A stretch of 64,000 nucleotides of DNA, taken from positions 45,032-109,031 of the forward strand of contig VBEC01000019.1 in NCBI GenBank assembly GCA_005883615.1, read 5' to 3'. The stretch is from Chloroflexota bacterium (lineage in GTDB: Bacteria > Chloroflexota > Limnocylindria > Limnocylindrales > CSP1-4). Under the pieces are notes generated by a model that saw nothing but the letters and a program-made list of their open reading frames with translations, ran no database searches and was not told where the DNA came from. Positions 35,376-45,112 of this stretch are shown piece after piece. The position numbers and the translations under genes were made by a program. Positions within the stretch are counted from its first letter, which is position 1; the number at the start of each line of letters is the position of its first letter.

Positions 35376-36566
35376 TCAGGCCGTGACCGCGACGGGGTGT
35401 GCCGAGCTCGAAACCAACCCGCTATCTACCGCCCGCTGACGGATCTGCTGTTCGTCCGGCTCCACACCCAATCCTGGCCCGCTCGGGATCTCGAACCAGC
35501 CTTCGACCATCGATAGCGGCCGGGTCAACAGGTCGGTCCTGAACGGGTTCTCGGTGGTGTCGTATTCGAGCAGCGGGGCGAACGTCGAGAGGGACCTCGT
35601 CGGGTCGGGCAGCAGCGCAAGCACCTGGAGGGTCGCTGCGAGCATGATCGCACCGCCCCACATGTGGGGGACGCACCCGACACCGCGGAGCTGAGCGAGA
35701 TCGGCGATGAGCTGGGCCTCTCCAACGCCGCCGCAGATCGACACGTCCGGCTGGACGATGTCGAAGATCCCACGTTCGAAACAGGCCTGGGCTTCCCTCC
35801 GATCGGCGATGCCCTCCCCGCCGGCCAGGGCAATGTCGAGCGCATCGTGGATGCGCTCGTAGCCCGCGTAGCCGTCTTGAGGCGCTGGCTCCTCGAACCA
35901 GACGAAGCCGAGGCGTTCCAGCCCATGACCCATTTCTATTGCCTGCGGGAGCGTGTAGGCAGCGTTCCCGTCGGCCATCAGCTCGATGCCGGGCGGTAGC
36001 CGCGACATGGCTGTCTCGATGGCGGCAAGCTCGTGTCTGATCGGGTGGCGACCGACGCGCAGCTTGATGGCCCTAAAGCCCTCGGCGGCCAGCGATGGCA
36101 GGTCGCGCTGCCAGGTCAGCGTCGGGTCGACCTCGCGCTCGCCGGCGCCCTCGCCCTCGACCTCGTATCCGGCACTCGAGGCGTAAGCTCGAACCCGATT
36201 GCGGACCGGCCCGCCGTACAGCCCCGCCAGCGGCATCCCGAGCTGCCGCGCCCGCAGATCATCCAGCGCGATCGACATCGCGCTCGTCGCGAGATTGCTG
36301 CCCGAAGCCGCGGCCACGTCACGCCAGATCGAATTGGCCGCGAGTGGGTCTCGAGCGACCACCGTTTTCGCCGCACCTGCAATCGCGGCAGTAACGCCCG
36401 GTTCGAGGTAGGTCTCACCCCAGCCTGTGATTCCATCCGAGTCGGTGAGCTTGACGAGGACGCACTCCCGCCTTCGGTAGGTCCAGATCGACGGGCCGCG
36501 CGGCGCCGACATGGAATGGGTCAGGACGAACCACTCCGCCCGTTCGATGCGAGAGCCCCGGCTCAC
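35376..36566 (-). CDS. enolase superfamily (MR/MLE) family dehydratase
   Basis: LVKLTDSDGITGWGETY, KLRVG, LMADGNAAYT and FEEP motifs. The GTG start overlaps the ABC ATPase stop in the pattern GTGA. Confidence 0.85.
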   Translation of the reverse strand: MSRGSRIERAEWFVLTHSMSAPRGPSIWTYRRRECVLVKLTDSDGITGWGETYLEPGVTAAIAGAAKTVVARDPLAANSIWRDVAAASGSNLATSAMSIALDDLRARQLGMPLAGLYGGPVRNRVRAYASSAGYEVEGEGAGEREVDPTLTWQRDLPSLAAEGFRAIKLRVGRHPIRHELAAIETAMSRLPPGIELMADGNAAYTLPQAIEMGHGLERLGFVWFEEPAPQDGYAGYERIHDALDIALAGGEGIADRREAQACFERGIFDIVQPDVSICGGVGEAQLIADLAQLRGVGCVPHMWGGAIMLAATLQVLALLPDPTRSLSTFAPLLEYDTTENPFRTDLLTRPLSMVEGWFEIPSGPGLGVEPDEQQIRQRAVDSGLVSSSAHPVAVTA

Positions 36567-37741
36567 GCGTTGATCCGCTCGCCGGTCTCGAGTGCGAAGA
36601 GATGTGTCCGCCCGGCAACGATCTCGCCGGTGACCGGCTGGCCGATCTCGACCCCGAAGTCGGGGGCGGCCCGCGCGACGATGGTCGCCTCGCCGGCGAC
36701 CAGTTCGACGAACGTGTCGGAGCCGATCGGTTCCTTGAGCCCGACAGTCGCCGTGAAGCTGCGGCCCGAGCCGGTCCCGCCGTTCGGCGAGATGCGGACG
36801 TCCTCAGCACGGACGCCGAGGGCGACCTGCGTGCGATCGGTCTCGGCCAAGCGGAGCTCACCAGGCCGTCCGACCCGGACACGGATCGTGCCGTCGTCCG
36901 AGACGAACTGGACGGCGTCGGCGTCGGCCTCGAGTCGGCCGCGCACCAGGCTCATTTTCGGCTTGCCAACGAAGGTGGCGACGTACATGTTGCGTGGCCG
37001 GCCGTAGACCTCGGCCTGGCTCCCGTACTGGACGAGCTTGCCCTCGCTCATGACGGCGATGGCGTCGGACAGCGTCATCGCCTCCTCCTGGTCGTGGGTG
37101 ACGAACACGCTGGTCGTTCCGAGTTGCAGGTGGAGGTGCTTCACCTCCGTCCGCATCCGGCTGCGCAGCGCGGCGTCGAGGTTGCTGAACGGCTCGTCGA
37201 GCAGGAACACCAACGGCTGCTTTACGAGGGCTCGACCGAGCGCCACCCTCTGCTGCTGGCCGCCCGAGAGCTGACTCGGCTTCCGGCGGAGCAGGTGCGC
37301 GATGTCGAGCATCTCGGCGACGACTTTGACGCGCTGCTCGATCTCCTGCCTGGAGCGGCGCTGGAGCTTGAGGCTGAAGGCGATGTTGTCGAACGCCGTC
37401 ATGTGCGGGTAGAGGGCGTAATTCTGGAAGACCATCGCCATCCGTCGCTCGTTTGGCGGGACGCCGGTGATGTCCTGCTCCCCGAGATGCACGCTGCCCG
37501 TATCCGGCTGATCCAGACCGGCGATCAGGTTGAGCGTCGTGCTCTTGCCGCACCCGGAGGGCCCGAGCAGGGTCACGAACGAGCCAGCCGGGATCTCCAG
37601 GGTAAGCTCGTCGACGGCGCGGACCTTCCCGAAGTGGCGCCCAAGACGGTCGAGGCGGAGCGAGGCGCTGCTGATTATCGTCGCTCTCTCCAACGACGGG
37701 CTGGCGCACATGGCGAACGGCGGCGCCGGCAGCGTCGCCAC
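36563..37741 (-). CDS. ABC transporter ATP-binding protein (carbohydrate importer, MalK/UgpC-like)
   Basis: Walker A (GPSGCGKST), LSGGQQQRVALGRAL, Walker B (LLDEP), and a C-terminal TOBE-like domain. The start is either GTG 37741 or ATG 37711. Confidence 0.9.
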   Translation of the reverse strand: MATLPAPPFAMCASPSLERATIISSASLRLDRLGRHFGKVRAVDELTLEIPAGSFVTLLGPSGCGKSTTLNLIAGLDQPDTGSVHLGEQDITGVPPNERRMAMVFQNYALYPHMTAFDNIAFSLKLQRRSRQEIEQRVKVVAEMLDIAHLLRRKPSQLSGGQQQRVALGRALVKQPLVFLLDEPFSNLDAALRSRMRTEVKHLHLQLGTTSVFVTHDQEEAMTLSDAIAVMSEGKLVQYGSQAEVYGRPRNMYVATFVGKPKMSLVRGRLEADADAVQFVSDDGTIRVRVGRPGELRLAETDRTQVALGVRAEDVRISPNGGTGSGRSFTATVGLKEPIGSDTFVELVAGEATIVARAAPDFGVEIGQPVTGEIVAGRTHLFALETGERINA

Positions 37742-37755
37742 CCACCCCGGGTGGG

Positions 37756-37775
37756 GTAGATTGTCGACAATCTAC
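37756..37775. promoter_or_regulatory. 20-bp perfect palindrome GTAGATTGTCGACAATCTAC immediately upstream of the ABC ATPase gene; operator-like
   Basis: Read directly in the sequence. It is the best copy of the recurring ATTGTCGACAAT motif. Confidence 0.6.
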
Positions 37776-37940
37776 GACCGGCCCGATGCCGCGTCAAGGT
37801 TATGCCAGGCGACCGTCCAGTGGCAGTGCTCAGGGCTCCAGCTGTGGGACACCCTGCTGACCCACTGACCGGCACACCCGGGCATAGAAGACGGCGCCCA
37901 CGTCGCCGTGAGCGCCGTCCAATGCGCGAGGAACGGAGCG

Positions 37941-39386
37941 CTACGAGCTCAGGTACTTGATGATGATGTCCTGGCAGCCCTTGACCGCAGCGGCGTGGGC
38001 CTTGTCCGCCGCATACGTCCCGTCGATCATCTTGGCGATGACCTCGTTGAACACCGGGGTGGTGTCGTACGGGGTCGACCATGGGTTGGTCTGGCCCTTG
38101 TTCTGCAGCGTATAGACCGGCTGCAGCGGCTGCGCCTTGATGACGTCGGGGTCAGTCGAGAGGGACGTGCGCGCGACCGGATAGAGCACCAGCGCGCCCG
38201 TGCTGTCCTTCACCGTAGTCGCTGCCGCCTTGCCGATCTCCTTGCTGAACGTGGCCTTCGCCCAACTCCAGCAGGCGTTGGCATTCTTGGAGAACTTGCT
38301 GACGCCGAGGCCGTCGGGACCGCCCGTGGAGCCGGTGCTGCCTGAAGCGTAACCCGGCATCTGGCGGACGCCGTGCTTCGCCGAGAATTGGGCCATGTCG
38401 CCTGTCAGCACCGGGCTCTCGCTCTCCCGGATCGTCGCGACGTTGCCTTGACCGAAAAGCTTGTACGCGTCGTGCTCGTTCGTGATGTTCATGTACTTGG
38501 GATCCCAGAACCCGCTCTTGAATCCCTCTTCGATCAAAGAGAAGACCTGCTTGCCCATGTCGTTGTCGAACCCGACCTGGGTGAAGTCGGGGTTGAACAT
38601 CGGCTGGCCCGTGGAATTCCAGATGTACGTGAAGTAGAGCTGCGCGAACAGGATCGCCTGGGTCGCCAGCCACGGCTGGACGCACGGGATGATGCCCGCG
38701 GCCTTGAACTTCGGAGCGAGCTTGAAGAGCGCCGGATAGTTGTCCGGTGGATTCTCCGGATCCTCGCCTATCTTCTGGAACAGGCTCTTGTTCCAGCCCC
38801 ACACTGCCGGGCTGTCGTACAGGGGCAACGCGCGCAGCATGCCGTCGGGGGTGGTGAGATCCTTCTTGGAGTTGTCGAAGAAGTCGCTGAGATCGCCGAA
38901 CACGTCCTCCGTCACCGGCAGCAGGAGGCGCGCGCCGAACTTCGGGATGTAGCCGTAAGCAGCGGTTGTGTACATCATGTCCCAGGAGGAATCCTGGGTC
39001 GCGATGATGCCGGCCTGCTTGATCTGTTTCTGGGCGAAGTCGACGTTGTTCTCCTTCGCGTCGCCACCGGTCGCCGTCTTCCACGCGGCCGTCCCTGCGT
39101 CGAGCCACGGGATCATGTAGCCGCCGGTGAAGTTCTGGAGGGTGACGCCGGCCCAGCTCTCGGATGGGACGGGCGAGGGGCTTGCGGGCGCTGCGGACGC
39201 CGACGCGGCGGCCGAAGCGGCCGACGATGGCGACGAACTCGGCGACGCTGTCGAGGTCCCACAGGCCGCGAGGAACGCGGCGCCGCCCGCGAGCAAGGTT
39301 CCCCGAAGGACCTCACGCCGGGTCAGCGTGCGCTCGAGCAGCGACTGGCCCAAGTCGGCCTCAGACGAACGAATTACATCCGCCAT
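37941..39386 (-). CDS. ABC transporter substrate-binding protein (family 1 solute-binding lipoprotein with a Tat-like signal)
   Basis: TRREVLRGTLLAGGAAFLAAC twin-arginine/lipobox leader, followed by an S/A-rich linker and an SBP fold. Confidence 0.85.
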   Translation of the reverse strand: MADVIRSSEADLGQSLLERTLTRREVLRGTLLAGGAAFLAACGTSTASPSSSPSSAASAAASASAAPASPSPVPSESWAGVTLQNFTGGYMIPWLDAGTAAWKTATGGDAKENNVDFAQKQIKQAGIIATQDSSWDMMYTTAAYGYIPKFGARLLLPVTEDVFGDLSDFFDNSKKDLTTPDGMLRALPLYDSPAVWGWNKSLFQKIGEDPENPPDNYPALFKLAPKFKAAGIIPCVQPWLATQAILFAQLYFTYIWNSTGQPMFNPDFTQVGFDNDMGKQVFSLIEEGFKSGFWDPKYMNITNEHDAYKLFGQGNVATIRESESPVLTGDMAQFSAKHGVRQMPGYASGSTGSTGGPDGLGVSKFSKNANACWSWAKATFSKEIGKAAATTVKDSTGALVLYPVARTSLSTDPDVIKAQPLQPVYTLQNKGQTNPWSTPYDTTPVFNEVIAKMIDGTYAADKAHAAAVKGCQDIIIKYLSS

Positions 39387-39480
39387 GGCACCCCACTCCT
39401 CGAGCGTCGGGCCGGTCCAAGCCGCCCCGAGCGGCCCGTAGTATGACACGGCTCGAGAGAGGTGTTTCGCGTGTCACGGC

Positions 39481-40629
39481 TCATGATCCGCGTGCCGATT
39501 CGACGGCCCTGGCCATCGCCCGTAGCTCCGGCAACTTGCTCTCGGCCGGATTCTCGTCGAGGGCTTCGGCCACCTCCTGCAGGGGCCCCATCGACCCGAT
39601 CCTGACGGCTTCTCCCAGCCGCAGGCACTTGCGATGCGCGAAGTGCCGGCCGATCAGGCCCAGGCTGCCGTTCGGGGAGCAGCCGACACGGTCGGAACCG
39701 CGCCCTTCCTGGGCCGCCCAGGCCATTGCCCAGACGTGGACCTCCGTTTCATCCAACCTTTCGGTCCTGGCGTCTGCGCTCCCGACGATGATTCCGCGGG
39801 CGGGTGGAACCGCGTCCAGGAACCGCCAGGCGGACGGCCCTGCGAGCACATCCACCAGGTAGCTCCGGTAGGGCAGCGCGATCAAGTCTTCGTAACCGGC
39901 CGGATCGATCTGGCCCCCCCACAGGCCGAGCGAAAGATGCGGCCCATCGTCGCTTTCGAGTCCCGCGAACAGCCGTTCATTCGCGGCGCGGAACGCCCGG
40001 AACTCGGCGATGTCCTCGCCGATTTGCAGGGTGATCGGTTCGTCGATTTCGACCATTGGGCACCCGGCCGCCGCCAGGGCCAGGATCTCCAGGTTGAGCG
40101 CTTCGCCCAGCTGCACGGCGAGGTCGGCACGACCTTTCGGGTCGGTTTCGGCGAGTGCCGCAAGGCTGTACGGGCCGACCATGGTCTGCTTGACGGGGAG
40201 ATCTGTCTGGCCGGCGGCGAATTGCCAGTCGCGGACTGTGACGGGACGCGTCCACAGGACCGTATCCTGGGCGATGGGACGGGTAGCAGGCTCCCCGTCG
40301 GGCAAGGTCGTGTGGTCGCCCGCCGCGAGACCCTCGAGGCCGCGGATCCAGGGAATGATTCGATCGTGCGCTCGCACGCCACCTTCACCCACGATCCCCA
40401 ACTCCACGACGGCCATCTCGCCCAGGATCTCGCGAACGAACTCGTCCGCGACGGCGCGAAATCCGTCCGCGTCGAGGTCGCCTTCGAGGAGTCTCCGTTC
40501 GGCGTCGCCCAGGAGATCGGGCTGGGCGGGGAGGGGTTTTCGTGAGTAACCGCCGGCAAACGTGGCAAACAAGCGAACCTCCCGGGCGCGACGTGCGGTT
40601 CGATCTCGATCAACCTCGATCGCGGTCAC
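39481..40629 (-). CDS. cobalamin-independent methionine synthase (MetE C-terminal domain / UroD-like) family protein
   Basis: MVEIDEPITLQ and a C-terminal CSPNGSLGL region align with the MetE catalytic-domain pattern (IQIDEPA ... DCGLKTR). The gene is embedded between transporter genes, and its start is uncertain. Confidence 0.7.
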   Translation of the reverse strand: MTAIEVDRDRTARRAREVRLFATFAGGYSRKPLPAQPDLLGDAERRLLEGDLDADGFRAVADEFVREILGEMAVVELGIVGEGGVRAHDRIIPWIRGLEGLAAGDHTTLPDGEPATRPIAQDTVLWTRPVTVRDWQFAAGQTDLPVKQTMVGPYSLAALAETDPKGRADLAVQLGEALNLEILALAAAGCPMVEIDEPITLQIGEDIAEFRAFRAANERLFAGLESDDGPHLSLGLWGGQIDPAGYEDLIALPYRSYLVDVLAGPSAWRFLDAVPPARGIIVGSADARTERLDETEVHVWAMAWAAQEGRGSDRVGCSPNGSLGLIGRHFAHRKCLRLGEAVRIGSMGPLQEVAEALDENPAESKLPELRAMARAVESARGS

Positions 40630-40714
40630 GCGCCAATCTCGTCCACCGGACGCCAGGTCGTGGGCCTTGGGGCCCGCGCGATGACGGCCACCGCGCGACG
40701 CCCGCGGCTCGTGT

Positions 40715-42634
40715 CTACCCCTTGACCAGCCCCTCGGTGAGGCCGGTGATGATGCGGCGATGGAACAGCAAGACGAGGACCAGGCACGGAATAACCGCAA
40801 CGATCCCCCCGGCGGCCAGGAGGTCCGGCGGCGGTGATTCGTTGAGCCGGAACGGGAAGCTCGTGATGACCGTGACCAGTCGCGTGATCGTGACGGCATT
40901 GCGGTTGCCGAGGATCACCGCGAACAGGAACTCGTTCCACGTGCCGATGAGGATCAGGATGGCTGCGGCGGCGATGCCCGGCCGGGCCGCAGGAACGGTG
41001 ACCCGGAATAACGTCCCCAGCCGCGAGCACCCATCGATCCGGGCCGCCCGCTCGAGGGCGATCGGCACCTCCGAGAAGAAATTGCGGAGCAGCCACGTGA
41101 CCAGGGGCAGCCAGAACGCGACGTTAACGATGACGAGCGCGGCGACCGTGTCCGTAAGGCCGAGGATCTGGAAGATCTTCAACACCGGGATCGCCATGAC
41201 GATCGCCGGGACCATCTGCATGAAGATGAGGATCGACAGGACGATGCGCTTGCCTGGCAGCTGGAACCGCGCCAGCGCGTACGCAGCTGGAGACGCCAGC
41301 ACGATGACGAACAGGGTTGTCAGTACGGCGTTCAGAAGGCTTACCACGAGGGAGCCTTGCCAGTGAACGTCCTGAATGATGCGGGTGTAACCGTCCAGCC
41401 ACAGGCTGGTGACCGACAGGTGCGGCGGCATATGCGACAGGGCCTCGTCGGTCTGCAGGCTCGTCACGATGATCCAGATGATCGGCGCGACAAAATAGAA
41501 CAGCAGCAGTCCGGCGCCGACCCCGAACAACACCCGACCCGCGCGCGGTGAAACCCTGATGAGCGACCGTCGCGGCCGCTCATCAGCCTCTGAGCGCGAT
41601 CGCGGCTCGGCGAGTGCCCTCGGGACGCCGGTCAGCCGCAGGGAGGTTTGCATGGCTGACGCCGCCAACTCGGAGTCCTCATCGATTGCCGGAGCGCGGT
41701 CGCGGCGCCGCCGGACCTGGACCAGCAGGAAGAGGAGGCTGAACAGCACGATGAGGCCAAACAGGACCACTGTCACCGTGGAGGCGTAGCCGAAGCTCAA
41801 GTTCTGGAACGCAAGCTCGAAGATCGCGTAAATCAGGACGTAGGTCGACCGTCCCGGCCCGCCGTTGGTGAGCGTGTACAACAGGTCGAAGACCTGCAGG
41901 CCAATGATCACTTGGAGAATGCCGACGATGATCAGGGTGGGCCGGATCGCGGGCAGCGTGATGAACCGGAACGATTCCCAGGACGTCGCGCCGTCCATCT
42001 TTGCCGCCCGATACAAGGTGCCCGGGATGGTCTTCAGCGCCGCCAGTAGCAGCACCGCCAGGAGCGGGACGCCCCGCCATGCCTGAGCGATGATCGCGAT
42101 CGTCACGGCCTGGCCCGTGTTCTGGAGCCAGTTGACAGGGTCCTGGATCAGGCCGAAGCCGATCAGGATCCCGTTCGCGATCCCGAAATGCGTATCGAAA
42201 ATGATGCGCCAGAAGATGCCGGCCACGACCGAGGCGATGGCCCACGGGAGGAGTACCGCCATGAAGAAGATGCTCGATCCGCGGAACCCGCGATTGAGGA
42301 CCAGGGCGGTGACCAAGGCCAGGGGCAGGGTGACGGCCGTGGTCAGTGCGGCAAGGACCACCGTCCGGGGGATGGCGTCGAGGATCTCCTGGTCGTGGGG
42401 CAGCCTCGTCAGGTAGTTGTTCAGGCCGACGAAGCGCACGAACTCGTCCTTGGCGAGCTCGATCCGGAACAGGCTGAGGCCGAAGACGCTCAGGATCGGC
42501 GGCGCGACGATGGCCGCCAGGAGGAGCAGGCCGGGGATCGAAACGAGCAGCGCGAACTTGCGTTCGCTGAGCCGGTCAAGTCGCCGGGAGATTCGGCCCG
42601 CACCTCGACCGATCGTCGCGGCCCCTGCGGCCAT
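40715..42634 (-). CDS. fused ABC transporter permease (MalF/UgpA-like TMD followed by MalG/UgpE-like TMD in one ORF)
   Basis: Two EAA-loop motifs (AAKMDGATSWESFRFITLP and ERAARIDGCSRLGTLFRVTVP) are separated by a charged linker, with no stop codon between them. An alternative TTG start is at 42673. Confidence 0.8.
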   Translation of the reverse strand: MAAGAATIGRGAGRISRRLDRLSERKFALLVSIPGLLLLAAIVAPPILSVFGLSLFRIELAKDEFVRFVGLNNYLTRLPHDQEILDAIPRTVVLAALTTAVTLPLALVTALVLNRGFRGSSIFFMAVLLPWAIASVVAGIFWRIIFDTHFGIANGILIGFGLIQDPVNWLQNTGQAVTIAIIAQAWRGVPLLAVLLLAALKTIPGTLYRAAKMDGATSWESFRFITLPAIRPTLIIVGILQVIIGLQVFDLLYTLTNGGPGRSTYVLIYAIFELAFQNLSFGYASTVTVVLFGLIVLFSLLFLLVQVRRRRDRAPAIDEDSELAASAMQTSLRLTGVPRALAEPRSRSEADERPRRSLIRVSPRAGRVLFGVGAGLLLFYFVAPIIWIIVTSLQTDEALSHMPPHLSVTSLWLDGYTRIIQDVHWQGSLVVSLLNAVLTTLFVIVLASPAAYALARFQLPGKRIVLSILIFMQMVPAIVMAIPVLKIFQILGLTDTVAALVIVNVAFWLPLVTWLLRNFFSEVPIALERAARIDGCSRLGTLFRVTVPAARPGIAAAAILILIGTWNEFLFAVILGNRNAVTITRLVTVITSFPFRLNESPPPDLLAAGGIVAVIPCLVLVLLFHRRIITGLTEGLVKG

Positions 42635-42901
42635 GAAGGATCCGCTGCCTCCTCCGAATGGGGTCGTCGGCAATCATCATCGGGCCGGTAGGACGTGTCA
42701 AACCGATCACGCGCAGTCCAGAGGCATGCCTCTCGCTGCAAGGCCTCCTGTGCCCTGTCTCGTGGCGTTCGGCCAGACGGGCACGGCCGCTCGCCAGATG
42801 GGGTAGTGGGCTCATGGGGCACCCGCGAGGCGATTTGACCGCGGGGTATCCTGACGCGGCGGTCTGGCTCCATGAGAGCCTGCGGCGGAGGGCGATGCTC
42901 C

Positions 42902-45112
42902 ATGGTGGCAAGGGTCGGGGACCCGACGCAGGGTCGCTCGGTCACGGTCCGCGTCGATACGTTCGGTGTCGGACCCGCGGCGTACGTTTTCGCTGTCACT
43001 CTCGCCGTACAGTCGTTCCACATGCTGGAGCATGTGGTTCAGGTGCTCCAGGCATTCGTCTTCCATATCCTGCCGGCCCACGGCATCCTGGGCTCGATCT
43101 TTGACCTGGAATGGGTGCATTTCTTCTACAACACGGACCTGTACCTGTTCCTCATCCTGGGCGCCGTGGTGCTCGTCCTGGAGCGACGCCCACGACCGCG
43201 GGCAGGCTGGCGTTGGCTCGGCGCGAGCCTGGCATTCCAGACCTACCACGAGATCGAGCACATCGTGAAGATCGCCCAGCACATCTCCACCGGGATCGAC
43301 CCTGCGCCGGGCATCCTGGGCCACTTCATAAACCTCATCTGGCTCCACTTCACGTTCAACCTGATCATCACGTCACTCGTGGCGATCGCCTTCGTCAAGC
43401 TCGGCCTCCACCACGAGATCGCGCCCGTCGCCCGGCTCGCCGCGCGACGAGTCCTGAGGCCACGCGTGCTGCTGCCGACGTCGGCCGTCCTGGCGGCGGG
43501 CCTCGTCGCTGCCGTCGCCGTCACCGCGAAGCCGCCCCCGACACGAGGCCCCAACCTTGGCTGCGCAGATGTCGCCGCGACGTCCGGTCTCAATTTCTCG
43601 GGCGAGTACGGACCTGTCTTCCCGGCCCTCGACGCGATGGGCGCGATGATGCAGCGCGACATGGGCAATGGTGCCGCAGTCGGCGACTACAACGGCGACG
43701 GCTACCTCGATGTCGTGCTGCTCGGCCAGGCCGGACGGCACACCAAGCTGTACCGGAACGATCCGGGCGTGGGCAACGGCCGGCATTTCAGCGACGTCAC
43801 GAATGCGGCCGGCTTGGGTGCGGTGACCTCCAACGCCCGGGTCGCCCAGTTCCTCGACCTTACCGGCTCGGGCCGGCCCGATCTCGTTATCGCCGCGGAC
43901 TACATGCCCGGCGGTCCGGCCGGCCCTTCCCAGATCTTTCGCAACAACGGCGACGGCACCTTCACCGACGTCACCGCCGGTTCAGGCTTCGATCCGACCG
44001 GCTACATCGTGGGCGGCATGACGTTCGCCGATTACGACGGCAGTGGCCGAGCCAGCATCTGGCTGAGCTATTGGACCCAGGAGCTGGCCGGAGATCCAGG
44101 CCTCATGAGGATCCAAGGGGCGTTTCCCGGCCACAACCGCCTGTACGAAAACCTCGGCGACTATCACTTCAAGGACGTCACCGAGTCCCTCGGCATCAGC
44201 GAGTACCACGCCGACAGCTTTACGGCGGTGTTTGCCGACTTCACGGGCGACGGGTTGCCGGACATCTACCAGGCGAACGATCACCGCACCGACCGGTTCT
44301 ATCGAAACATGGGTGGCGGTCAGTTCCGCGACGACACCACGGCCGTCGGCCTGACCCGCGCGGGCAACAGCATGGGCGTGGCCACGACCGTAGGCTCCGG
44401 TGGTCGCCTCGACTTGTATGTGACGAACATCACGGATCCGGGCGGCACGTTCGGGACCAACCAGGGAAACACGTTCATGATGAGCAGCCAGGACGCCGGC
44501 GGAACCCTTCACTTCACGGACGAAGCCGCGTCACACGGCATCGTCGACACGGCGTGGGGCTGGGGCACGCAGTTTGTCGACATGAACGGCGACGGCGCGC
44601 CAGACATCTACGCCGTCCAGGGCATGCGCGAATTCGTGGGCAACGGAAGCGTCCACCTTGAGAACGCGACGTCCAGCCTCTTTCTCAACGATGGTTCCGG
44701 CCTGACATTCAAGCGATCCGATGCGCCGGGGTGCCAGGTTCCGGGCGACCAGCGCGCACTCGTCGTTTTCGACTTCAATCGGGACGGGTCGCCCGACCTG
44801 CTGATCAGCCAGGTAGCCGGCCCGCCGATTCTCCTCGAGAATCTCATCAGCGGCCGGAACTGGCTGACGGTCGCTGCGACCGGCCCGGCAGATGCCGGTA
44901 TCAACGCGCGCATCACCGTGACCGCGGGTGGTCGAAGCCAGACCCAGATCATCCTGGCGGGGGGCAGTTACCTCGCGGGCCCGCCGAGGGAGGCCTACTT
45001 CGGTCTGGGTGGGGCAAGCGCGGCCACTGTCAAGGTCGCCTGGGCGAATGGCGAGACGTCGGAGTACGTAAACGTCCCGGCGGGCCAGGTCCTGCAGGCG
45101 AAGCGACCTTGA
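42902..45112 (+). CDS. CRTAC1-family protein: an FG-GAP/VCBS repeats + ASPIC/UnbV domain fused to an N-terminal duplicated membrane domain
   Basis: Repeated D-x-[DN]-G-[DS]-G-x-x-D motifs and a C-terminal UnbV-like segment. The N-terminal ~200 aa contain two homologous TM hairpins with HMLEH/HEIEH and PAxGILG motifs. An SD lies before ATG 42902. Confidence 0.8.
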   Translation: MVARVGDPTQGRSVTVRVDTFGVGPAAYVFAVTLAVQSFHMLEHVVQVLQAFVFHILPAHGILGSIFDLEWVHFFYNTDLYLFLILGAVVLVLERRPRPRAGWRWLGASLAFQTYHEIEHIVKIAQHISTGIDPAPGILGHFINLIWLHFTFNLIITSLVAIAFVKLGLHHEIAPVARLAARRVLRPRVLLPTSAVLAAGLVAAVAVTAKPPPTRGPNLGCADVAATSGLNFSGEYGPVFPALDAMGAMMQRDMGNGAAVGDYNGDGYLDVVLLGQAGRHTKLYRNDPGVGNGRHFSDVTNAAGLGAVTSNARVAQFLDLTGSGRPDLVIAADYMPGGPAGPSQIFRNNGDGTFTDVTAGSGFDPTGYIVGGMTFADYDGSGRASIWLSYWTQELAGDPGLMRIQGAFPGHNRLYENLGDYHFKDVTESLGISEYHADSFTAVFADFTGDGLPDIYQANDHRTDRFYRNMGGGQFRDDTTAVGLTRAGNSMGVATTVGSGGRLDLYVTNITDPGGTFGTNQGNTFMMSSQDAGGTLHFTDEAASHGIVDTAWGWGTQFVDMNGDGAPDIYAVQGMREFVGNGSVHLENATSSLFLNDGSGLTFKRSDAPGCQVPGDQRALVVFDFNRDGSPDLLISQVAGPPILLENLISGRNWLTVAATGPADAGINARITVTAGGRSQTQIILAGGSYLAGPPREAYFGLGGASAATVKVAWANGETSEYVNVPAGQVLQAKRP

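Follow-up and report, generated by a model that had tools for sequence, protein, structure and literature searches.

A single gene on the plus strand of the window, by which we mean the whole 64,000-nucleotide stretch of DNA analysed here, represents, as judged from sequence comparison, a genuine fusion, in frame, of two genes found side by side but separate in relatives. The encoded protein consists, in order, of an N-tail, a 4-TM domain rich in His and Glu residues, a linker TM, an FG-GAP propeller and a UnbV_ASPIC tail (Table 1). The 4-TM bundle is a member of a large and so far undescribed family. Our best explanation as a whole, in which the fusion is genuine and the bundle holds an intramembrane metal or cofactor site serving the surface partner, is held with slightly less than even confidence.

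Table 1. Features of the fusion gene and of the divergent importer operon in the window.
Feature	Position	Strand	Evidence
Shine-Dalgarno-like GGAGG	42887..42891	+	10 nt before the ATG at 42902
Whole fusion gene, 736 aa + stop	42902..45112	+	ORF; Pfam; near-identical 736-aa database protein P0215; fused ORF in contig L058
Repeat 1 (TM1 residues 25-53, outer GILG loop, TM2 residues 70-94)	42974..43183	+	AF2 helices; internal repeat, z=15
First H-x-x-E-H cluster (H40, E43, H44), in TM1	43019..43033	+	Conservation
Repeat 2 (TM3 residues 100-130, outer GILG loop, TM4 residues 145-166)	43199..43399	+	AF2 helices; internal repeat; conservation
Second H-x-x-E-H cluster (H116, E119, H120), in TM3; HEIEH in the window	43247..43261	+	Conservation
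Basic cytoplasmic helix (residues 169-184) and linker TM5 (residues ~187-208); fusion junction	43406..43525	+	AF2 secondary structure
Extracytoplasmic FG-GAP/VCBS beta-propeller with DxDGDG-type loops	43547..44896	+	Pfam; likeness to L001; CRTAC1 9etn
UnbV_ASPIC C-terminal domain (residues 666-731)	44897..45094	+	Pfam PF07593, 2.2e-11
Divergent ABC importer operon	36563..42673	-	Pfam
MalK-type ATPase	36563-37741	-	Pfam
Solute-binding protein	37941-39449	-	Pfam
Meth_synt_2-like gene	39481-40899	-	Pfam
Fused 2x BPD_transp_1 permease	40715-42673	-	Pfam

The single open reading frame of the fusion spans 42872-45112 on the plus strand. The ATG at 42902 is a better start than that at 42872, because the GGAGG lies 10 nt upstream of it, the N-termini of the homologs align there, and the database protein P0215 is 736 aa long; no Shine-Dalgarno-like site was read in the sequence before the upstream ATG. 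The same start had been chosen in the first-pass annotation. Further into the gene, at ~43451, there is an internal GAGG-GTG from which a separate propeller might be translated, whereas a single fused product would have 80 kDa. Searches of the window for tRNA genes and Rfam families gave zero matches.

The C-terminal module of about 520 aa is assigned to the CRTAC1/ASPIC-UnbV family by its FG-GAP_3 repeats with DxDGDG calcium loops, its UnbV_ASPIC tail and its similarity to human CRTAC1. The Pfam matches fell within residues ~255-731 and comprised six stretches of FG-GAP_3 (2e-33; 115.2 bits, cutoff 26.9), FG-GAP (44 bits, cutoff 22.1) and UnbV_ASPIC (2.2e-11; 43.9 bits, cutoff 23.4). The sole PDB match by sequence was human CRTAC1 (9etn_A, E 2.9e-10), over query residues 403-504 only. 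The predicted calcium loops, as read from the sequence, were GDYNGDGYLD, DFTGDGLPD, DMNGDGAPD and DFNRDGSPD. The propeller was 63% identical to a separate 555-aa propeller protein of locus L001, and its dN/dS was 0.14. Close homologs were named by their sources “CRTAC1 family protein” or, at JGI, “enediyne biosynthesis protein E4”. Typical members of the family have 540-590 aa and a simple signal anchor, whereas the window protein has the 4-TM His-rich front domain. The earlier description of a CRTAC1-like FG-GAP/UnbV module fused to a membrane domain was therefore borne out by Pfam and 9etn; both parts of the layout it had proposed were confirmed, and the fifth, linker TM (residues ~187-208) was missing from it. 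Nothing usable was found in the literature on the function of bacterial CRTAC1/UnbV proteins or on UnbU.

The N-terminal membrane domain consists of four TM helices that form two homologous helical hairpins of ~150 aa in total. Local alignment of one hairpin with the other scored 113, compared with 28 +/- 5.6 in 1000 shuffles (z=15), and the internal duplication that had been proposed was thus upheld. In the family signature, each of the two hairpin repeats combines Q-x-x-H-x-x-E-H-x-x-Q with a GILG loop and an H-F-x-x-N helix; all of these motifs are found in the window. The residues of repeat 1, namely Q37, H40, E43, H44, Q47, Q50, G61, G64, D68, E70, H73 and N77, were conserved at 92-100%; those of repeat 2 were Q113, H116, E119, H120, K123, Q126, G137, G140, H149 and N153. 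Among representatives drawn from the 50%-identity clusters, conservation in the first cluster was 100% for H40, 99.5% for E43 and 98.6% for H44 (206-213 representatives), and in the second cluster 100% for H116 and 99.5% for both E119 and H120. The H-x-x-E-H clusters, P-A-x-G-I-L-G turns and W/L-H-F-x-x-N motifs that had been described in both copies were present and conserved in 70 homologs and 214 representatives, and were almost invariant in orthologs and distant relatives alike, contrary to the possibility that they would not be conserved. Two details of that description had to be corrected. The conserved His residues number six (H40, H44, H73, H116, H120 and H149) instead of four, and together with the two Glu residues E43 and E119 all eight were present in 200 of 204 representatives. 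The reading of repeat 2 as HExxH failed, as E117 occurred in only 13 of 214 representatives (6%) and repeat 1 lacks a Glu at that place; it is H-x-x-E-H that is conserved, and an HExxH zincin was rejected. Across phyla and two domains of life, 6 His, 2-3 Glu, 2 Asn and 5 Gln residues were near-100% conserved. The dN/dS of the 4-TM core was 0.27 versus 0.53 in the linker, and the AF2 model of the membrane part was confident (pLDDT 89.5). From the conservation of the eight His and Glu residues, the dN/dS and the model, the 4-TM domain is functional.

The Lys and Arg residues were found only in the N-tail, the TM2-3 loop and the TM4-5 segment, and the inside-to-outside orientation of TM1 was consistent across all architectures. 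The predicted topology places the N-terminus and the two basic loops inside the cell and the two GILG loops and the propeller outside, with the linker TM5 carrying the chain outward to the propeller. In each helix, the conserved polar residues were shown to occupy a single face, from the outer membrane surface to the mid-plane; that the His and Glu residues converge was deduced from nothing but helix periodicity and depth. A simple count of depth placed the His residues on three tiers (H73/H149, H44/H120 and H40/H116), an arrangement that suits a “ladder” or relay no less well than it suits a single compact site.

With the window 4-TM domain as the query, founding members of the family were retrieved with E-values down to 2.3e-57, and a profile built from them identified at least 705 clusters at 50% identity (E<=1e-3). 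The members came from bacteria and archaea, including Chloroflexota, Armatimonadota, Actinomycetota, Thaumarchaeota and others, and every member found was from an uncultured organism. The membrane domain matched no family of Pfam, NCBIfam or the PDB, and none was found in the searchable literature. The only Pfam model with a signal for the window was DUF6008 (PF19471; 12.6 bits, E 0.097, cutoff 27). In 7 of 71 members (E<=0.1; best 24.8 bits, below the cutoff) TM2-TM4 aligned to positions ~104-210 of the 235 in this model, but all scores were sub-threshold and the model was matched only in part, so that membership was rejected. DUF2231 was a marginal match, and no useful literature was found on either domain. 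The NCBIfam model SemiSWEET (NF037967) scored 23 bits against a cutoff of 200 and was regarded as spurious, owing to compositional similarity of TM segments. No PDB relative was found by phmmer or, at E<=10, by the family profile, and Foldseek of the membrane domain returned generic helical bundles only (best E 0.57 for the PDB and 0.25 for BFVD). The N-terminus therefore stands outside the named families, in line with the first-pass annotation, which had not recognised it as one, and no known family claimed it.

The junction was examined against the split genes of locus L001, which encode proteins of 208 and 555 aa. One hydrophobic segment, the stop codon, a 15-bp spacer and the start codon of that arrangement are missing from the window, whose junction is ~35 codons shorter than the two-gene version. 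A single reading frame could also be produced by a sequencing or assembly error joining two genes, and it is true that the majority of the TM-domain homologs are stand-alone proteins, P0017 and P0021 (~185 aa) among them, and the majority of the propeller homologs have 540-590 aa. This explanation is hardly credible, however, and was rejected: shortening by ~35 codons is unlike a point indel, the identical junction was present in an independent contig of a near-identical strain (L058; 298/300 identical, with the substitutions elsewhere), and the ortholog P0228 (contig L144), 73% identical, has the junction of the window. The fusion proteins formed database clusters with 22 and 36 member sequences, the latter represented by P0228, and dN/dS indicated purifying selection on both halves. 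The same architecture was found in P0118, P0189, P0149 and P0278/282/283. The genes for the membrane domain and the propeller were adjacent but separate in L001-3, L139, L142, L009, L013, L017 and L050, and at such split loci both proteins bear their own membrane anchors. The 210-aa and 162-aa genes of the split loci were ruled out as obligatory partners since they are absent from the window.

In the family, fusion or adjacency to large extracytoplasmic beta-rich proteins occurs repeatedly, often in or beside ABC-transporter operons. A NosD-like beta-helix was the commonest fusion partner (28 representatives), and others included a BNR propeller, DUF2330, an RHS giant and, in P0124, a cupredoxin-like domain whose match was below the Pfam cutoff. 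The fusion gene of the window lies divergently to a transporter operon, as noted earlier, with the permease gene facing it on the minus strand. Genes of this importer operon are also found on the flanks of the split pair in L001 and, in part, in L142; in L062 the propeller gene comes immediately after the orthologous solute-binding protein gene. In 9-10 genomes, a beta-helix fusion is the last gene of an SBP-permease-permease operon, and the P0118 fusion comes after BPD_transp_1 x2 and ABC_tran. The window itself sits in a glycoconjugate/sugar-acid island, and sugar-acid catabolic genes (MR_MLE, Gfo/Idh/MocA and FMN_dh) occur in the neighborhoods. Copper and other metal-related genes were close to the domain in L006 and its sister contig L138 (Fur, NicO, YHS, cupredoxin, CDF and CopD) and in L037, where MerR is followed by a CopZ-like HMA fused to a CcdA-like membrane domain and, 18 bp on, by the TM gene, with one CopD-like ORF in addition. 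A general metal-gene neighborhood was rejected, as it was confined to these two independent lineages and did not recur in the other ~50 loci. Further contexts were heterogeneous: Dehalococcoidia had ABC exporters, L023/L008 had genes of glycan biosynthesis, and the genes around L004 and L144 were unrelated. A link to PEFG-CTERM sorting in Thaumarchaeota was dropped because it was seen in L018 only and was absent from L017.

The extreme diversity of the fusion partners and the frequent ABC-transporter neighbors would suit a passive anchor or docking module, which tethers surface proteins or docks onto ABC permeases and uses its polar residues for helix packing. The domain has been lost or has decayed in several propeller lineages (L059, L060, L061/62, P0292 and P0307), so the propeller has no strict need of it; in P0217, P0227 and P0255 a single TM anchor replaces it, and P0292 and P0307 retain a degenerate copy without His residues. 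We nevertheless consider a passive role quite unlikely. The near-100% conservation of His, Glu, Asn and Gln across phyla is not expected from packing alone, the split versions have an anchor on each protein, and stand-alone members without a nearby partner exist. With the split proteins self-anchored and the beta-helix-first fusions already carrying an N-terminal signal anchor, we infer that the bundle is more than an anchor.

The layout of the window protein resembles that of VKOR-thioredoxin fusions and membrane PQQ glucose dehydrogenase, in which a small polytopic bundle (a 4-TM bundle in VKOR, a 5-TM anchor in the dehydrogenase) is joined to an extracytoplasmic domain, the thioredoxin domain of VKOR following a linker TM. 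Like these, it would combine a small bundle, a linker TM and an outside domain with an active site of the bundle facing the outer leaflet, but there was no sequence or significant fold similarity. By this analogy, the bundle might bind haem b or a quinone and connect the membrane pool with the extracytoplasmic domain by passing electrons between them. The MR_MLE, Gfo/Idh/MocA and FMN_dh genes would suit extracellular sugar oxidation, quinone sites typically have clusters of His, Gln, Glu and Lys, and the non-significant Foldseek neighbors included Dcytb, STEAP, NarI and cytochrome oxidase subunit III (Dcytb and NarI at E 1.8-3.8 only). Such a relay is nonetheless improbable in our view. The His residues on the same helix are at i and i+4, unlike the spacing of ~13-14 in di-haem bundles such as cytochromes b561, NarI and Dcytb; no Cys, and hence no CxxC, was found in the 4-TM domain, which excludes VKOR/DsbB chemistry; Pfam gave no PQQ or haem family match, and no PQQ propeller signature in the window protein. 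Partners such as RHS and NosD-like beta-helices are not known as redox enzymes.

Alternatively, the bundle could be an intramembrane enzyme whose His/Glu/Asn cluster is a catalytic site that opens to the outer leaflet and may or may not depend on a metal. Its substrates would be lipid-linked or membrane-proximal, for example a glycolipid, a tethered peptide or a polyprenyl-linked glycan, and would be bound or presented by the variable extracytoplasmic domain. Intramembrane proteases of the CPBP/Rce1 type use Glu/His/Asn chemistry, which the H-x-x-x-N and the His-adjacent Glu of each repeat may recall. The partner folds (beta-helix, FG-GAP and BNR propellers, and Laminin_G) are typical of glycan binding or processing, the glycan-biosynthesis genes Bac_transf, DegT and Polysacc_synt_2 occur at some loci, and the island around the window gene would fit as well. 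However, neither the window nor the 71 members had a Pfam match to Rce1-like/CPBP or to a hydrolase family of any kind, even with the threshold at E<=0.1, and the CPBP order of EExxxR, FxxxH and HxxxN/D was not found, with only HxxxN shared. A 4-helix bundle leaves little space for a substrate channel, and six invariant His residues exceed the needs of such catalysis. An enzyme of this kind therefore appears unlikely.

Two further systems bear comparison. NosD and NosDFY are copper-delivery machinery, and the present family likewise has Beta_helix/NosD-type partners outside on a membrane module in ABC-transporter operons. The ABC genes here, however, are of the CUT1 type (SBP_bac_1 and BPD_transp_1), not NosFY; the NosD match in Pfam may reflect only a generic CASH beta-helix, and no nosZ or nosL was seen. 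In enediyne cassettes, a UnbV-type propeller is encoded beside a polytopic membrane protein (the UnbV-UnbU pairing), and in the present family, too, a propeller gene neighbors a polytopic membrane protein, although no enediyne PKS genes are found here. The L062 and L143 orthologs, which lack the membrane domain, are followed by a conserved ~541-aa partner with at least 8 TMs. This protein gave only a weak RnfD-like signal (E 0.0018) and is unrelated to the 4-TM His domain.

We return to an intramembrane metal or cofactor site, to which the conservation pattern, the helix-face geometry and the two independent metal-gene neighborhoods lend indirect support. In this explanation, the six His and two Glu residues would form an outward-open site for one or two transition-metal ions, with copper as the best guess, and N77, N153, E70, K/R123 and the Gln “ladder” would form its outer shell. 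Such a site would make the bundle a working partner of the surface domain, holding, delivering or redox-cycling the metal or cofactor at the membrane surface. At this locus of the window, the propeller and the bundle probably cooperate with the CUT1-type ABC importer encoded divergently and with the sugar-acid/glycoconjugate catabolic genes around them. More speculatively, and with considerable doubt on our part, the bundle may represent a new class of outward-facing intramembrane metal centre that metallates or redox-services surface beta-propeller and beta-helix proteins in cis or in trans, mostly in uncultured lineages. Possible forms of this centre are a binuclear 3-His-plus-Glu site and a His-ladder metal relay, and the lineages using it would be largely Chloroflexota, Actinomycetota and Thaumarchaeota.

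Widespread and under very strong constraint, the membrane domain nonetheless has no entry in Pfam, NCBIfam or the PDB and is absent from the searchable literature. Its repeated fusion or adjacency to propellers, beta-helices and other exported domains is “Rosetta-stone” evidence for a functional partnership, and this partnership offers a first handle on the enigmatic bacterial CRTAC1/UnbV proteins. Since the domain is small (~150 aa), it is directly testable by expression, metal analysis and structure determination, and the family merits a Pfam entry and experimental attention even if the domain proves to be something else. Were the His/Glu cluster to bind metal, both its architecture as an intramembrane metal site and the principle of supplying or controlling extracytoplasmic proteins from inside the membrane would be new.

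The C-terminal half of the 736-residue fusion protein was assigned to the CRTAC1/ASPIC-UnbV family, as Pfam detected six FG-GAP_3 repeats (2e-33), FG-GAP and UnbV_ASPIC, and every family feature testable in sequence was found. The sole solved sequence relative was human CRTAC1 (9etn, 2.9e-10). The two N-terminal hairpins were homologous, with a local alignment score of 113 against 28 ± 5.6 in 1000 shuffles (z=15). The internal duplication proposed in the first-pass annotation was thereby borne out, and together with the Pfam module its description of a CRTAC1-like propeller joined to a duplicated membrane domain was correct. The gene lay in a single open reading frame, in which the ATG at 42902 appeared the better-supported start than that at 42872, because GGAGG stood 10 nt upstream (the ATG at 42872 had none), homolog N-termini aligned to begin there, and the near-identical database protein P0215 had 736 residues. 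Just 5' of the linker TM helix (TM5), a GAGG was followed after 6 nt by GTG, the Val codon of RPRVLL, which could in principle let the propeller be translated separately.

Coordinates of the features described in the text (window nucleotides, residues from the Met at 42902, or positions in the compared loci)
Feature	Location	Coordinates	Strand
Catabolic island	window	26450-53431	
Solute-binding protein (SBP) gene	window	37941-39449	-
Meth_synt_2-like gene	window	39481-40899	-
Fused permease gene	window	40715-42673	-
Sigma-70-like promoter match	window	42673-42701	-
Open reading frame of the fusion	window	42872-45112	+
GAGG-GTG element	window	~43440-43455	
Predicted helices of the bundle	fusion protein	25-53, 70-94, 100-130, 145-166	
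Short helix	fusion protein	169-184	
TM5	fusion protein	187-208	
UnbV_ASPIC	fusion protein	666-731	
N-terminal bundle of the RHS protein	P0088	19-164	
PEFG-CTERM protein gene	L018	4647-6935	
Fused relative with frameshifted TM domain	L059	1-830	
~541-aa multi-TM protein gene	L062	3276-4295	
~541-aa multi-TM protein gene	L143	9723-11348	

The first-pass search gave 70 homologs for the N-terminal domain, each a stand-alone protein of 142-245 aa, and the fusion was compared with split loci. In L001, the contig of P0003, a gene for a 208-aa membrane protein was followed, 15 bp from stop codon to next start, by a 555-aa FG-GAP/UnbV gene whose propeller was 63% identical to that of the window; upstream, as in the window, lay divergently oriented genes for the fused permease, the SBP and Meth_synt_2. 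In L001 a fifth TM helix, then a stop codon, closed the first gene and the second opened with its own signal anchor, whereas the window had a single hydrophobic segment between bundle and propeller and was about 35 codons shorter. The window gene, which lacks these codons and one hydrophobic segment relative to L001, is therefore a clean in-frame gene fusion and not the product of an indel. The same junction was present in L058, from a different assembly, with 298 of 300 N-terminal positions identical and substitutions elsewhere, and P0228 (736 aa, 73% identical, from a cluster of 36 sequences) had all motifs and the same single linker TM. The architecture was also found in P0118, P0189, P0149 and P0278/282/283. 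Comparison of the window gene with that of P0228 (L144) gave dN/dS values of 0.27 in the 4-TM core, 0.14 in the propeller and 0.53 in the linker, all approximate since dS was about 1 and near saturation; both halves were under purifying selection. Unfused adjacent pairs were spread over several distant lineages, in Gemmatimonadales (L009), Armatimonadota (L013), Ardenticatenaceae (L050), L139 and L142, and in the thaumarchaeon L017 with the propeller gene first. Agreement of longest-contig figures in both match lists suggests, without proving, that eight further pairs share a contig.

No family was assigned to the N-terminal 220 aa by Pfam or NCBIfam. The window scored 12.6 bits with DUF6008 (cutoff 27), and a SemiSWEET match in NCBIfam was meaningless at 23 bits against a cutoff of 200, so the region fell in no well-known family. 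DUF6008 matched 7 of 71 members, all below cutoff (best 24.8 bits) and confined to TM2-TM4 at model positions ~104-210 of 235; a literature search gave no paper mentioning it. The defining features of DUF6008, zincins, CPBP proteases, VKOR/DsbB, di-haem cytochromes b and SemiSWEETs were each looked for and were absent, which placed the N-terminal half outside all of them. Foldseek returned only generic bundles in the PDB (best E 0.57) and no improvement in BFVD (best E 0.25), and none of the sequences in the PDB matched the family profile at E<=10. A profile of 71 sequences, searched against 1.84 billion representatives, matched 705 clusters made at 50% identity with E<=1e-3, of which 407 reached E<=1e-10; the bundle is thus a large, widespread, His-rich and so far undescribed family. 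Among species-representative genomes its hosts were only MAGs, apart from one Patescibacteria-group assembly without a MAG label, and comprised Chloroflexota (Dehalococcoidia/SAR202, Anaerolineae), Armatimonadota, Actinomycetota (Gaiellales, Thermoleophilia), Thaumarchaeota, Gemmatimonadales and one Patescibacteria member. Across 214 representatives, H40, H116 and H149 were conserved in 100%, E43, E119 and H120 in 99.5%, H73 in 99%, H44 in 98.6%, E70 and K/R123 in 98%, N77 and N153 in 97% and 95%, Q37, Q47, Q50, Q113 and Q126 in 92-97%, and the Gly of both GILG loops in 94-100%. The paired His/Glu motifs were thus kept across relatives, with the complete set of eight His/Glu residues in 200 of the 204 sequences covering those columns. 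The reading of the second motif as HExxH failed, as E117 occurred in only 13 of 214 representatives.

The AF2 model from the family alignment was confident (pLDDT 89.5, pTM 0.75). Lys and Arg were restricted to the N-tail, the loop between TM2 and TM3 (ERRPRPRAGWRW) and the segment joining TM4 to TM5 (ARLAARRVLRPR), and both GILG loops were free of them. Because of this distribution, the positive-inside rule predicts a cytoplasmic N-terminus and outside GILG loops, with TM5 taking the propeller outside. This topology was consistent with the signal anchor on separate propeller proteins and with fusions ordered as signal anchor, beta-helix, extra TM and bundle. Judged from helix periodicity on the alignment and AF2 helices, the conserved polar residues of each helix fell within one face of ~140 degrees (Q37/H40/E43/H44/Q47/Q50 in TM1, E70/H73/N77 in TM2, mirrored in repeat 2), reaching from the outer helix end to about the mid-plane, and the inner half was variable and hydrophobic. 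The fusion protein is laid out like VKOR-thioredoxin fusions and the PQQ glucose dehydrogenase of membranes, in which a linker TM connects a small bundle to a domain on the outside; a NosD-on-membrane arrangement is similar too. These resemblances are analogies and not homology.

Of the 59 family members with 260 aa or more, 28 combined the bundle with Beta_helix/NosD-type domains (24 beta-helix first, 4 bundle first) and three with FG-GAP/UnbV propellers. Other partners were a BNR/Sortilin-type propeller (P0198), a sub-cutoff cupredoxin-like domain (P0124), DUF2330 (P0089) and an Ig-like domain (P0196); two proteins had tandem bundles and several had ~300-aa extensions without a known domain. 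The 2753-aa P0088, with RHS-repeat, Laminin_G_3, TIG and Big_7 domains, is a toxin-like surface giant carrying the same membrane module.

In 51 genome loci, a propeller gene was adjacent in 4, and in 9-10 a beta-helix fusion closed an SBP_bac_1-BPD_transp_1-BPD_transp_1 operon. In about 14 Dehalococcoidia loci a stand-alone bundle gene lay immediately 5' of a heterodimeric ABC exporter; an ECF sigma factor was encoded close by, as were secreted subtilase/RCC1 proteins. This setting is a conserved yet different neighbourhood: in L022-L044 (Dehalococcoidia/SAR202) paired ABC_membrane+ABC_tran half-transporters follow the stand-alone bundle gene, and on its 5' side lie genes for an ECF sigma factor and a DUF5667 protein, together with divergent ones for secreted Peptidase_S8/RCC1/Cache proteins. 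The P0118 fusion gene followed two BPD_transp_1 genes, ABC_tran and ABC2_membrane. Metal genes surrounded the bundle gene in two independent lineages: L006/L138, counted as one because their CDFs were 87% identical (Fur, NicO, YHS, cupredoxin, divergent CDF, CopD), and L037, where a MerR-family regulator was followed by a CopZ-like HMA fused to a CcdA-like membrane domain and, 18 bp on, the bundle gene. The context was glycan biosynthesis in L023 and L008 and uninformative in L004 and L144. In the thaumarchaeal MAG L018, the gene directly 5' of the bundle gene encoded a 762-aa surface protein with a PEFG-CTERM sorting signal, which was not present in the other thaumarchaeal partner, the L017 propeller.

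The window island around the fusion gene, partly syntenic with L001 and L142, held a CUT1-like importer, four MR_MLE (enolase-superfamily) enzymes, FMN_dh, 2-Hacid_dh, Peptidase_S9, Asparaginase_2, PALP, two sialidase-like BNR_2 proteins, DHDPS (NanA-like family), ADH_zinc_N, a MalK-type ATPase, GNAT and a GntR/FCD regulator; this content suggests uptake and degradation of a sugar-acid or glycopeptide-type substrate. The SBP had zero Pfam matches at E<=1e-3 and was clearly orthologous to those of L001 (49% identity) and L062. Between it and the permease lay a Meth_synt_2-like gene (MetE C-terminal domain), a family also neighbouring the L001 and L142 genes; such a companion is unusual for a sugar-type importer, yet conserved. 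The 652-aa permease fused both subunits (two BPD_transp_1 domains). TTGACA-17-GATGAT, the sole sigma-70-like promoter match in the intergenic region, overlapped its listed TTG start, so the true start is probably further downstream.

The bundle-propeller pairing is not obligatory. L061, L062 and L143 had the propeller without a bundle, and L060 only a remnant of one. In L059, a 66-68% identical relative, the fused junction was kept; the TM domain was frameshifted over three reading frames, with a 6-aa duplication, altered motifs (YHELGH, WLHS) and loss of conserved residues, which means that the domain is decaying or else that the assembly is poor. Directly preceding its linker TM, a Met could act as a new start. 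P0292 and P0307 kept the TM scaffold and had lost most His/Glu, and these degenerate N-terminal copies of propeller fusions look like "inactivated" bundles serving only as anchors. In L062 and L143 the propeller gene was directly followed by one for a conserved protein of ~541 aa with 8 or more TMs (copies 75% identical) and only a weak RnfD-like signal (E 0.0018), which may be an alternative membrane partner of the propeller. Enediyne cassettes pair UnbV with UnbU, a pairing that this arrangement recalls by analogy.

For the bundle, we argue for a role beyond anchoring, because both proteins of split versions carry their own anchors, the polar set is near-invariant across phyla and two domains of life, and purifying selection acts on the core in the fused lineage. 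The bundle would form a polar core, open to the outside, whose lining consists of paired His in three tiers together with Glu, Asn and Gln; one or two metal ions, or another cofactor, would be bound there or relayed through it. We give such a metal or cofactor site slightly less than an even chance, and copper is our best guess for the metal because metal genes surround the bundle gene in two lineages, one fusion partner is cupredoxin-like and the ligand set is all His/Glu without Cys. For its partner the bundle could deliver metal, carry out redox chemistry or catalyse a reaction on a substrate close to the membrane. Both the observation and the interpretation of the first-pass annotation were supported and extended, and this natural fusion ties the enigmatic CRTAC1/UnbV propellers of bacteria functionally to a new, widespread family of His-rich membrane bundles.
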